Sequence record: PP418987.1 | DNA length: 64,000 nucleotides | Source: Escherichia phage UPWr_E4 | Direction: 5' to 3' (one strand) | Part shown: positions 12,389 through 14,041 of the stretch, piece after piece | Numbering within the stretch: position 1 is the first letter of the stretch | Layout: the number at the start of each line of letters is the position of its first letter | Notes under the pieces: generated by a model | What the model was told of the DNA's origin: nothing | Seen by the model: only the letters and a program-made list of their open reading frames with translations | Database searches by the model: none | Position numbers and translations under genes: made by a program

Positions 12389-12616
12389 ATGGCTAAAGTT
12401 GATATTGACATCGTTGATTTTGAATATATTGAAGAGATTATTCGTAATCGTTATCCTGAACTTAGTATCACAAGCGTGCAAGATTCTAAGTTTTGGAGTA
12501 TTCAAATCGTTATTGAAGGTCCTCTTGAAGACCTCACCCGCTTTATGGCTAATGAATATTGTGATGGTATGGATGCTGAAGACACAGAATTTTACATGGG
12601 AATGATTGAACAATAA
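12389..12616 (+). CDS. small early protein (frd.3-like), function unknown
   Basis: 75 aa from ATG at 12389 with AGAGGA RBS; the track start at 12326 is an upstream extension. Confidence 0.55.
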
Positions 12617-12661
12617 TTATCAAGGGGCTATTAAGCCCCTATTAAAATGAGGAAAATCAAA

Positions 12662-13048
12662 ATGGAAATCGGCAAAAAATACGAGTTAAATCCACACCGT
12701 ATTAAATCTTTCATTGATATTAGTTCATCAAATGCTAATATGGTCGGCATCATTCAAGAAAATGGTGGTTGGTTTGAAGTTAAATCAATATCAAGTTTAG
12801 ATGGCTTTGATTATGTAACCGAAATCATTTGTGCTAATGGTGAAATCTATAATGATGATGGTATGGGTGATGATTATTTTGAACTTAGTGAAGAAGAGTT
12901 TTATTGTTTCCGCGAATATAAAGAACCGACTTCTGAAGAAGATGAAGTCAAAGACAAGGTTTCTGGCGTAACAAAAATTCACTGCATTGTTGACGAAAAC
13001 AATGTAGATGAAATCATTGAACTTTTGCGAAAAACTTTCAAAAAGTAG
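12662..13048 (+). CDS. small acidic early protein (frd.2-like), function unknown
   Basis: ORF in track (12647..13048); ATG at 12662 has better GAGGA spacing. Confidence 0.55.
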   Translation: MEIGKKYELNPHRIKSFIDISSSNANMVGIIQENGGWFEVKSISSLDGFDYVTEIICANGEIYNDDGMGDDYFELSEEEFYCFREYKEPTSEEDEVKDKVSGVTKIHCIVDENNVDEIIELLRKTFKK

Positions 13049-13076
13049 TTTACATAGGGTTTTAGTTGTGATACTA
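13047..13076 (+). promoter_or_regulatory. early promoter (GTTTACA, 17 nt spacer, TACTAT)
   Basis: Motifs read directly, upstream of small ORFs. Confidence 0.45.
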
Positions 13077-13107
13077 TTACCCTATCAAAACTAATGGAGA
13101 AAAGAAA

Positions 13108-13176
13108 ATGTTAGCACCTTATATTATGGCAGCAGTTATGTTGGTTTGTTTATATCTTTTGATTAAAGCTTGCTAA
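13108..13176 (+). CDS. tiny hydrophobic peptide (22 aa, MLAPYIMAAVMLVCLYLLIKAC), putative single-pass membrane peptide
   Basis: GGAGAA RBS 7 nt upstream of the ATG; stop overlaps the RBS of the next ORF; below the 60 aa track cutoff. Confidence 0.3.
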   Translation: MLAPYIMAAVMLVCLYLLIKAC

Positions 13177-13186
13177 GGAGAATAAA

Positions 13187-13429
13187 ATGAGATTACAACG
13201 TCAGAGCATTAAAGATTCGGAAGTTAGAGGTAAATGGTATTTTAATATCATCGGTAAAGATTCTGAACTTGTTGAAAAAGCTGAACATCTTTTACGTGAC
13301 ATGGGATGGGAAGATGAATGTGATGGATGCCCTCTTTATGAGGATGGAGAAAGCGCAGGATTTTGGATTTACCATTCTGACGTCGAGCAGTTTAAAGCTG
13401 ATTGGAAAATTGTGAAAAAGTCTGTTTAA
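13187..13429 (+). CDS. small early protein, function unknown
   Basis: 80 aa ORF with GGAGA RBS. Confidence 0.55.
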   Translation: MRLQRQSIKDSEVRGKWYFNIIGKDSELVEKAEHLLRDMGWEDECDGCPLYEDGESAGFWIYHSDVEQFKADWKIVKKSV

Positions 13430-13439
13430 GGAAAATAAT

Positions 13440-13799
13440 ATGTCTGACATTCGTGTAGCTGGAATTGCTCGAGTAAGTATTCGTTGCCAACTTAAAACTG
13501 CACCTGGGACGGCTTATATTAATTTATCACACGACCTATGTTCTAGTGAAAGACAGTTAACAGGTGTAATTACATTTTACGCTGGATTTGGCGGAAACGA
13601 ATTTACTGTAGGCGAATTTGTTGGCTGTAAATTAAAAGTTCAGAAGAACGTATTAGAACTTTTTAATGACCTTTACGATGATAGTGATGAAGTTTTTGAT
13701 GAAATCGCACAAGCAGTTAACAGAGGAATGGTAACTTTAGTTAAAATGATTAAAGATAGCGGATTTGCTTCTGGCCCCTTTCAGTGGGAGGTAATATGA
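13440..13799 (+). CDS. small early protein, function unknown
   Basis: 119 aa ORF, ATG with RBS. Confidence 0.55.
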   Translation: MSDIRVAGIARVSIRCQLKTAPGTAYINLSHDLCSSERQLTGVITFYAGFGGNEFTVGEFVGCKLKVQKNVLELFNDLYDDSDEVFDEIAQAVNRGMVTLVKMIKDSGFASGPFQWEVI

Positions 13800-14041
13800 T
13801 TTTTGTATTTGAATTTATGAATGATGAATTCGATTATGCAATTTTTAACGCATTGCATAATCCTGATTTAAGTGAATTTAACGAAATGTTTTCTGACGCT
13901 TTGAGTATGTCAGAAGAATACTGTGGAGAATGTCAACGTGTTTGTGTGACAGTCTTTGAAAACAAAGAAAAGACCTATGAAGAATTATTCTTTGATGCTA
14001 ATAAAGCCACTGAATGGTTTGTTGAAAGAGGTTTTGCGTAA
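13796..14041 (+). CDS. small early protein, function unknown
   Basis: ATG at 13796 overlaps the upstream stop (ATGA) with GGGAGG RBS; the track start 13784 is GTG. Confidence 0.5.

Follow-up and report, generated by a model that had tools for sequence, protein, structure and literature searches.

The region between gene 32 and frd of Escherichia phage UPWr_E4 (PP418987.1) is an ordinary accessory early-gene cluster of T-even phages, probably the normal frd.3-frd.2-frd.1 cluster in a fuller, ancestral form. The cluster is already known, having been catalogued in hundreds of T4-like genomes, in Pfam and in PHROGs. In the window, that is, the whole stretch of 64,000 nucleotides analysed, all six small ORFs of the original prediction were confirmed on the + strand between the gene 32 terminator and frd. 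The features of the locus are as follows.

12267–12285, + strand: intrinsic terminator hairpin of gene 32 (7 bp, 6 of them GC, followed by a T-run; terminator scan)
12316–12345, + strand: early promoter Pe1, GTTTAC-N14-ATGG-TACTAT, of the T4 type, driving frd.3 and frd.2
12389–12616, + strand: frd.3, 75 aa, Pfam Phage_FRD3
12623–12640, + strand: GC-rich hairpin with no T-run, between frd.3 and frd.2
12662–13048, + strand: frd.2, 128 aa, Pfam FRD2
13046–13093, + strand: long hairpin, a composite promoter/stem-loop cassette of the PeSL type
13048–13077, + strand: early promoter Pe2, GTTTAC-N14-GTGA-TACTAT, inside the long hairpin
13108–13176, + strand: micro-ORF with a hydrophobic product of 22 aa, MLAPYIMAAVMLVCLYLLIKAC
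13187–13429, + strand: frd.1, 80 aa, DUF5417
13440–13799, + strand: ORF-E, 119 aa, DUF7247
13796–14041, + strand: ORF-F, 81 aa, phrog_3183
14041–14622, + strand: frd, dihydrofolate reductase (PF00186), the downstream boundary of the island

Positions 12200–14100 were 100% identical to phages KarlGJung (Bas37), EC101 and KMB26, in which the five larger ORFs are all annotated. The gene set is identical in T6, PST, AR1, RB27 and KarlGJung/Bas37, annotated there as hypothetical proteins; AR1 has one additional ORF (ar1_247), which separates frd.2 from the promoter cassette. The absence of any assignable motif, also predicted, was borne out: the proteins matched only families, DUFs and PHROGs without an assigned function, and not every ORF corresponded to a T4 protein of known mundane function. 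Functional studies of ORF-E, ORF-F, Frd.1 or Frd.3 were not found in the literature under gene names, Pfam accessions or locus tags. An Rfam search of positions 11000–15000 gave no match, and neither late promoters nor MotA-box promoters were detected within the island.

The three genes shared with T4 were very close to their T4 counterparts. Frd.3 matched PF05798 over its entire length (residues 1–75 on profile positions 1–75 of 75; 133 bits, cut-off 28.1, E 5e-39), with 96% protein identity to T4 Frd.3, the mRNA of which has been reported to be NAD-capped. Frd.1 matched PF17438 (DUF5417; 115.6 bits, cut-off 23.9, E 1e-33) and was 100% identical in amino acid sequence to that of T4, with eight synonymous differences; its dN/dS of 0–0.04 makes frd.1 the island gene under the strongest constraint. 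Frd.2 matched PF03197 (133.5 bits, cut-off 29, E 5e-39), showed 99% protein identity to T4 Frd.2 and gave a weak match to the goF PHROG (E 7e-4). Since T4 Frd.2 is a named member of the GoF/MotB.1/Frd.2 family, the sequence places the window protein in this LSm-like family, whose N-terminal domain was predicted from AlphaFold3 models to be a five-stranded LSm/SH3-like beta domain (Kim et al. 2025, PMC12152347). The T4 frd.2 amber mutant plates normally (PMC12152347), and frd.2 was non-essential by Tn-seq in T4 and Bas37 (bioRxiv 10.1101/2025.11.20.689424). CRISPRi-ART, in which T4 frd.2 was called 'Fit' and hence a contributor to fitness, disagrees with both the amber mutant and the Tn-seq data.

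ORF-F (AR1_244, bas37_0072 and 'RB32ORF231c' of T6) matched phrog_3183 with an E value of 1e-42, residues 1–81 aligning with profile positions 1–80 of 80. An exhaustive HMMER search with this protein recovered five proteins only, and thus no deeper family is present in the library searched. The dN/dS values of ORF-F and Frd.1 were 0–0.13, and the conservation of ORF-F was about that of frd itself. Its AF2 model was confident (pLDDT 93) and had as structural neighbours the T4 Dmd antitoxin (PDB 5hy3_B) and RbcS-like small alpha+beta domains; the Dmd match was no better than that to many unrelated small alpha+beta domains, and no convincing structural relatives were obtained for ORF-F or for ORF-E. 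Given the similar beta-then-helix layout, both proteins were considered as divergent paralogues of Frd.2/GoF, which was rejected (hhalign probabilities of 0.4% for ORF-F and 3.9% for ORF-E). A 40% local match of ORF-F to a T4 ORF was traced to a low-scoring acidic stretch of Frd.2 and was likewise discarded.

ORF-E (AR1_245, bas37_0073 and 'RB51ORF237' of T6) matched PF23905 (DUF7247) with 109.1 bits (cut-off 27), and this domain was found in every one of its 72 homologues. The gene is polymorphic and has been repeatedly lost. Its alleles are block mosaics with the variation located in loops and in the C-terminal tail; T6 carries a different allele, 87% identical to that of the window. The dN/dS was about 0.5, which relaxed constraint could explain as readily as diversifying selection. 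Outside this group of phages, DUF7247 was found in Phapecoctavirus and a podophage; ORF-E has spread to unrelated virulent coliphages.

The micro-ORF is the first cistron after Pe2, with a Shine-Dalgarno sequence (GGAG) 8 nt before its ATG and a stop codon inside the Shine-Dalgarno sequence of frd.1. It was found in 200 phage records, T4 included; among the records examined it was annotated only in ACG-C40, being unannotated in the T4 reference. Its 16 variable sites were distributed 5/1/10 over the first, second and third codon positions, all replacements were conservative for hydrophobicity, and both the length and the stop codon were conserved between Tequatrovirus and Dhakavirus. The conservation is thus of the coding type, and the product would be a putative membrane micropeptide. 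The literature, when searched, yielded nothing relevant on ribosome profiling of small ORFs in T4. A reading frame conserved yet unannotated in T4 and nearly all its relatives indicates that micropeptide genes are still missed in the best-studied phage.

Both promoters, the one paired with the terminator and the second one upstream of the micro-ORF, had been predicted and were recovered by scan as TTTACA-N17-TACTAT with an upstream TG (12317–12345 and 13049–13077). Chance would yield 0.10 matches to the strict T4 early-promoter pattern GTTTAC-N18-TAYWAT in the 64-kb window; there are four, each of them on the + strand, and two of these are the promoters of the island. The two promoters also fit the consensus TTTACW-N17-TAYWAT of the PeSL promoters of PST and T4 (Comeau 2014, PMC4122927; for PeSL cassettes see also Arbiol 2010, PMC2839356) and, as in those cassettes, each is joined to a stem-loop and adjoins indel-prone ORFs. 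The gene 32 terminator hairpin (12267–12285; RNA fold dG −14.3 kcal/mol) is the stem-loop half of a PeSL-type cassette. The long hairpin (13046–13093) had a dG of −18.5 kcal/mol and a z of −3.5, equalled by none of 200 shuffles, and differs from the described cassettes in having the promoter within the hairpin and not after it. This second element also lies upstream of the micro-ORF in T4, T6, AR1 and SA21RB; in Dhakavirus MN04 it is found at another locus. The hairpin between frd.3 and frd.2 (dG −12.9 kcal/mol, z −3.0) is called a terminator in the annotation of SA21RB.

The coupling between genes proposed in the original prediction was confirmed by their spacing. Gaps of 10 nt separate the micro-ORF from frd.1 and frd.1 from ORF-E, ORF-E and ORF-F overlap by ATGA, and ORF-F and frd overlap by TAATG; from the micro-ORF onward the genes are thus translationally coupled, ORF-F into frd.

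As stated in the original prediction, T4 has fewer genes in this interval, annotated with frd.1 to frd.3 only, and this is explained by the loss of about 550 nt from T4. The direction of the difference is the opposite of extra genes having been added to an island in the window: five genes are both the ancestral condition and the more frequent one, and T4 carries a deletion scar. T4 (NC_000866, T4p240-242) shares with the window the position, order and strand of frd.3-frd.2-frd.1, the promoters and the micro-ORF; ORF-F is absent and most of ORF-E is gone, a stump of 16 codons being retained within a 71-bp spacer that aligns with the 5' end of ORF-E (35/39 and 20/26 nt) and with the last 21 nt before frd. 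In ACG-C40, ORF-E is deleted exactly between two TAATATG repeats, and in phage Nami the micro-ORF is precisely missing with the promoter retained. Indels do cluster in the island, yet the junctions that were mapped fall at 7-nt repeats around start sites and not at the promoter cassettes; these deletions do not require mini-circle formation of the PeSL kind.

The wider distribution agrees with this polarity. Jiaodavirus, Kanagawavirus and Karamvirus have Frd.3-Frd.2-Frd.1-E in synteny, and Gaprivervirus has the same layout with an ORF of similar size in the ORF-E slot, not matched to ORF-E by alignment. In Kanagawavirus and Gaprivervirus, the gene immediately upstream of frd is a homologue of ORF-F. 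The gp32 proteins of these genera with shared synteny are only 53–76% identical. For this interval T4 is a deletion variant, and T6, PST and Bas37 better represent the natural gene set.

Under the favoured explanation, the cluster would be transcribed right after infection from two early promoters of the sigma-70 type, both of which have a stem-loop as partner. The first unit would yield Frd.3 and Frd.2; the second would yield the 22-aa membrane-type micropeptide, Frd.1, ORF-E and ORF-F, and would continue by start/stop overlap into frd, a 68-aa ORF and td. Early expression of ORF-E and ORF-F is suggested by the promoter type and by knowledge of T4. The products would be small, dispensable proteins that most likely bind host or phage macromolecules, Frd.2 through its LSm/SH3-like domain and ORF-E and ORF-F as compact alpha+beta modules, and that probably confer conditional benefits only. 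Recombination at very short repeats, namely reiterated Shine-Dalgarno/start sequences and promoter cassettes, would delete or swap single cistrons and make gene content vary, with the loss of most of ORF-E and all of ORF-F in T4, of ORF-E in ACG-C40 and of the micro-ORF in Nami as outcomes. Among the components, ORF-E alone appears to evolve in the manner of a factor for host interaction or counter-defence.

Dispensability data are available from HIDEN-SEQ of Bas37 on K-12 (bioRxiv 10.1101/2025.11.20.689424), in which Frd.3, Frd.2 and ORF-E were non-essential and Frd.1 and ORF-F were classed as 'Intermediate'. Insertions were recovered at 16/19 TA sites of frd.3 (Bas37_0076), 10/13 of frd.1 (Bas37_0074) and 8/15 of ORF-F, which tolerated transposons least among the island genes. 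Because Frd.1 and ORF-F were intermediate and not non-essential, they may add to fitness even on K-12. In three of the six host or defence comparisons, including K-12 versus CFT073 and CFE299, fitness did not drop when any of bas37_0072 to bas37_0076 carried insertions (adjusted p = 1, log2FC −0.24 to +1.10), for a host panel that is narrow and leaves room for other defences.

These data bear on the possibility that the island serves counter-defence or host takeover, with proteins, especially the ORF-E and ORF-F absent from T4, that inhibit immune systems or host factors; as an account of the whole island we consider it unlikely. It would fit a plastic early region beside promoter cassettes, the kind of region in which, according to the HIDEN-SEQ preprint, T-even phages have other counter-defence genes, and it is favoured by the presence/absence polymorphism, dN/dS, mosaic alleles and coliphage spread of ORF-E. 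However, none of the five genes behaved in the three comparisons as one required on a host with a cognate defence, nor were they among the named anti-defence hits of that preprint. The Druantia/Zorya paper on Bas37 has no escape mutations within the island. Searches of defence and anti-defence models gave no credible matches, the sole one being that of ORF-F to Cas8b (PADLOC, 13 bits, E 0.008), too weak and with nothing else backing it, and PDB searches, profiles included, gave no sequence relatives. ORF-F resembles Dmd no more closely than it does many unrelated small alpha+beta domains, and ORF-F, Frd.1 and Frd.2 are highly conserved, unlike typical arms-race genes. Only ORF-E looks, from its sequence evolution, like a gene with the signature expected of host interaction or counter-defence. 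A narrower combination, in which ORF-E is a counter-defence or host-range factor against a system absent from the tested hosts and the micro-ORF is a real membrane micropeptide gene overlooked for decades in the T4 reference annotation, is unlikely as a whole. It would nevertheless be reasonable to include ORF-E in wider anti-defence screens, since it has been lost repeatedly, has mosaic alleles and a raised dN/dS, and has reached unrelated coliphages.

It is slightly less probable still that the proteins tune phage nucleic-acid and nucleotide metabolism, with Frd.2 acting on phage mRNAs as an RNA-binding protein of the LSm-like type and ORF-F, perhaps together with Frd.1 and ORF-E, as accessory partners of the nucleotide-synthesis enzymes Frd and Td, with which they are co-translated. 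The membership of Frd.2 in the GoF family points in this direction, as a GoF mutant stabilises gene 41 mRNA (PMC12152347), but wild-type GoF and MotB.1 showed no RNA-related activity in the same study, in assays that did not include Frd.2. The coupled chain Frd.1-E-F-frd-ORF68-td, the position of the ORF-F homologues right before frd, the frd-like conservation of ORF-F and its low transposon tolerance are also consistent with such a role; against it, Frd and Td of T4 are functional without ORF-E or ORF-F, and no sequence or fold links ORF-F to folate or nucleotide enzymes. As frd is non-essential, a role as a helper of frd cannot account for the intermediate score of ORF-F. That the ORFs are largely functionless passengers, ORFan filler shuffled by recombination and kept by hitch-hiking, is very improbable: all are dispensable in the laboratory, and for each of ORF-E, ORF-F and the micro-ORF there are lineages that have lost it, but within Tequatrovirus purifying selection acts strongly on Frd.1, ORF-F and Frd.2, synteny is kept across genera with divergent gp32, the micro-ORF shows coding-type substitutions and the model of ORF-F is confident.

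The ordinary accessory cluster thus carries little weight for discovery, its genes being catalogued and a transposon screen of an identical phage having given no phenotype for them in the comparisons covered. The identity with KarlGJung does not extend to the flanks: outside the island the window differs from this phage, having a T4-type SegG before gene 32 and, after frd, a 68-aa ORF.

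The window is a genome segment of a Tequatrovirus (T-even) phage, and the island of small ORFs between the gene 32 terminator and frd is best interpreted as the ordinary frd.1–frd.3 accessory early cluster in a fuller, ancestral form. Its genes are already known, being annotated without an assigned function, and its interest is therefore low; added here are a deletion scar in T4, mapped short-repeat deletion junctions, coding evidence for an unannotated micro-ORF, and ORF-E as the one arms-race-like gene. The features are as follows:

9997–10650, + strand, gene 59, 5' of the island
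10652–11284, + strand, SegG homing-endonuclease gene, between genes 59 and 32
11339–12244, + strand, gene 32, 5' of the island
12389–12616, + strand, Frd.3, 75 aa
12662–13048, + strand, Frd.2, 128 aa
13108–13176, + strand, micro-ORF, 22 aa, hydrophobic
13187–13429, + strand, Frd.1, 80 aa
13440–13799, + strand, ORF-E, 119 aa
13796–14041, + strand, ORF-F, 81 aa
14041–14622, + strand, frd, 3' of the island
14619–14825, + strand, 68-aa ORF (phrog_9550), between frd and td and overlapping both
exon 1 from 14825, + strand, td with I-TevI intron, downstream of the 68-aa ORF

The Frd.2 start was placed at 12662, as in T4, because the GAGG Shine-Dalgarno sequence is downstream of an earlier in-frame ATG, at 12647. 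Cistrons are tightly coupled from the micro-ORF on, with 10-nt gaps (micro-ORF/Frd.1 and Frd.1/ORF-E) and start/stop overlaps (ATGA for E/F and frd/68-aa ORF, TAATG for F/frd and 68-aa ORF/td). Mapping of ORFs, promoters, gaps and overlaps bore out in all particulars the ORFs, promoters and coupling described in the original prediction, whose interpretation is supported in part.

The gene 32 terminator hairpin (12267–12285, dG -14.3 kcal/mol) was followed by a T-run, and early promoters were located on the + strand at 12316–12345, 3' of this terminator, and at 13048–13077. Both share the sequence GTTTAC-N14-(A/G)TG(G/A)-TACTAT and fit TTTACW-N17-TAYWAT, the consensus of the promoter-early stem-loop (PeSL) cassettes in the PST/T4 pair (PMC4122927). 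The strict form GTTTAC-N18-TAYWAT matched four times in the 64-kb window, all on the + strand, against 0.10 expected. The two other matches lay at 8430–8459 and 25692–25721, both on the + strand, and the spacer motif GTTGTGATA was common to the promoters at 25692 and 13048. The second promoter was inside a long hairpin (13046–13093, dG -18.5 kcal/mol, z -3.5, equalled by no shuffle), and a GC-rich hairpin was present between frd.3 and frd.2 (12623–12640). Inside the island, a promoter scan detected neither a late promoter (TATAAATA) nor one with a MotA box, and an Rfam search of it gave no match. The two PeSL-type early promoters would transcribe the island.

The region 12200–14100 showed 100% identity to KarlGJung (Bas37 of the BASEL collection), EC101 and KMB26, and 96–97.5% to Sf21, PST and T6; the five larger ORFs are annotated as hypothetical proteins in these relatives. 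Records in the phage collection numbered 453 for E-like sequences, 451 for F and 598 for the whole interval. T4 (NC_000866) has fewer ORFs, as originally stated: only frd.3, frd.2 and frd.1, followed by a 71-bp spacer (T4 extract 3191–3262, minus strand) corresponding to window 13430–14040. This spacer matches ORF-E over its initial 74 nt (35/39 and 20/26 identities; one 9-nt gap) and the last 21 nt 5' of frd (21/21), keeps the last nucleotides of ORF-F, and carries a 16-codon ORF-E stump, MYVIEIIQVSIRFQLK and a stop, versus MSDIRVAGIARVSIRCQLK in the window. Judged from these alignments, the spacer is a deletion scar left by the loss of about 550 nt, and the reference T4 genome is therefore a deletion variant at this locus.

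The order Frd.3–Frd.2–(variable slot)–Frd.1–E was also found in Jiaodavirus (Mineola), Kanagawavirus (IME523) and Karamvirus (Pet-CM3-4). The layout is repeated in Gaprivervirus (VR20), where the E slot holds an ORF of similar size that gave no alignment match to E. Immediately 5' of frd, both Kanagawavirus and Gaprivervirus carry a recognisable F homologue. These comparisons mark the fuller arrangement as ancestral and T4 as the outlier. ACG-C40 lacks E, its deletion being bounded exactly by two TAATATG repeats, one at the E start and one at the F start. In Nami the second promoter is retained and the micro-ORF missing, and in AR1 an additional 86-aa ORF separates frd.2 from the promoter cassette. 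Short-repeat recombination would remodel the island.

The micro-ORF (MLAPYIMAAVMLVCLYLLIKAC) is the first cistron behind the second promoter and is preceded, at a distance of 8 nt, by a GGAG Shine-Dalgarno sequence; no other short hydrophobic ORF in the 64-kb window has a Shine-Dalgarno sequence. It was present in 200 phage records, T4 and T6 included, and annotated only in ACG-C40 among the matches listed; it had no Pfam or PHROG family match, and RNA folding indicated no unusual structure in its leader (z +1.6). Six distinct sequences had 16 variable sites, distributed 5/1/10 by codon position, all replacements being conservative hydrophobic, and SA21RB differed from T4 by four synonymous and zero non-synonymous changes. 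Such a pattern speaks for a peptide gene that is probably translated. Dhakavirus MN04 (extract 1501–1569) carries a copy of equal length, MFAPYIMITVIVICLYLLIKAC (73% identical), behind a similar stem-loop with a -10 region, elsewhere in the genome and followed by an unrelated 73-aa gene, which suggests that stem-loop and micro-ORF may move as a single module. An unannotated 29-aa hydrophobic ORF (MIEAELVVLLISVTAAFISGIILGLFLYV) of Jiaodavirus Mineola (extract 2419–2508), overlapping both the stop of Frd.1 and the start of ORF-E, is a second tiny membrane-type ORF in the island of another genus, unrelated to the micro-ORF.

Four products belong to families without assigned function (Phage_FRD3, FRD2, DUF5417 and DUF7247) and ORF-F to phrog_3183. 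Neither NCBIfam and PADLOC scans nor PDB searches, by single sequence or by profile, yielded a credible match to island proteins, in agreement with the original prediction that none has an assignable motif. Frd.2 is 99% identical to T4 Frd.2, which forms one family with GoF and MotB.1 whose N-terminal domain is predicted to be LSm/SH3-like (Kim et al. 2025, PMC12152347); the link to GoF was reproduced as a weak match to the goF PHROG (E 7e-4). T4 frd.3 mRNA has been reported among abundant NAD-capped phage RNAs. The fold family of Frd.2 and the conserved F–frd coupling suggest that the proteins may act in phage RNA or nucleotide metabolism, a reading weakened by T4 managing without E and F. 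In the accessory-cluster reading, the products would be small dispensable binding proteins plus a micropeptide.

Transposon sequencing of T4 and Bas37, whose island is identical to that of the window, is described in the HIDEN-SEQ preprint (bioRxiv 10.1101/2025.11.20.689424). There, Frd.3 (16/19 TA sites hit), Frd.2 (23/25) and E (30/32) of Bas37 are non-essential on E. coli K-12 and Frd.1 (10/13) and F (8/15) 'intermediate'; T4 frd.1, frd.2 and frd.3 are each non-essential, frd.2 tolerating insertions at 24/25 sites. A T4 frd.2 amber mutant plates normally (PMC12152347). CRISPRi-ART scored T4 frd.2 as the sole 'Fit' gene of unknown function (PMC11879866), a call at odds with both the amber mutant and the transposon insertions, and possibly due to polarity.

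Nei-Gojobori dN/dS within Tequatrovirus was 0.03–0.08 for gp32, 0–0.04 for Frd.1 (protein 100% identical to T4, with 8 synonymous changes), 0.06–0.13 for F, 0.02–0.16 for frd, and 0.48–0.57 for E versus T6, Nami and SA21RB. Identity was 95–99% for F in 404 of 451 records and 62–100% for E among the Tequatrovirus matches listed. Alleles of E combine two allele types in block mosaics, with variation clustered in loop 33–39, indel 76–82 and the C-terminal tail 107–119. DUF7247 also occurs in Phapecoctavirus nieznany (extract 2468–2791), a Stephanstirmvirinae myovirus, within another small-ORF cluster, and in podophage vB_EcoP_WFI101126 (BFVD entry A0A482MRC5), from which it follows that the family has been transferred between virulent coliphages that are unrelated. 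Because of the raised dN/dS, mosaic alleles and spread of DUF7247 beyond Tequatrovirus, E is termed arms-race-like; it is the only island gene with hallmarks of host-interaction genes, and the same data fit relaxed constraint too. The island may serve anti-defence, as originally proposed, with E as the main candidate, but this part of the prediction gained no positive evidence. Some negative evidence comes from a narrow host panel: in the three of six Bas37 comparisons covered here (K-12 vs CFT073, K-12 vs CFE299 and one further), no conditional requirement was detected for the five genes (adjusted p = 1, log2 fold changes -0.24 to +1.10), and none is named among the anti-defence hits in the main text (bioRxiv 10.1101/2025.11.20.689424). 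The purifying selection acting on Frd.1, F and Frd.2 contradicts the idea that the island is junk DNA.

One Logan metagenome contig (7462 bp) encodes a 196-aa in-frame fusion of E (Nami-type allele) and F, P0017, which could be real and hint at a functional link, or could be a stop-removing sequencing or assembly error.

The 68-aa ORF (14619–14825) had no Pfam match; its slot is empty in T4 and holds a 115-aa putative homing endonuclease in KarlGJung, and the frd–td junction is therefore another variable slot. I-TevI (245 aa) lies at 15505–16242, within the td intron, as in T4. The ORF at 10652–11284 matched T4 SegG at 100% identity across the 196 aa that were aligned and had no counterpart in KarlGJung, AR1 or Nami; the window is thus mosaic, T4-like upstream of gene 32 and PYPS2T/T6-like downstream. 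Mosaicism of this kind is known to arise from gene conversion driven by SegG around gene 32.
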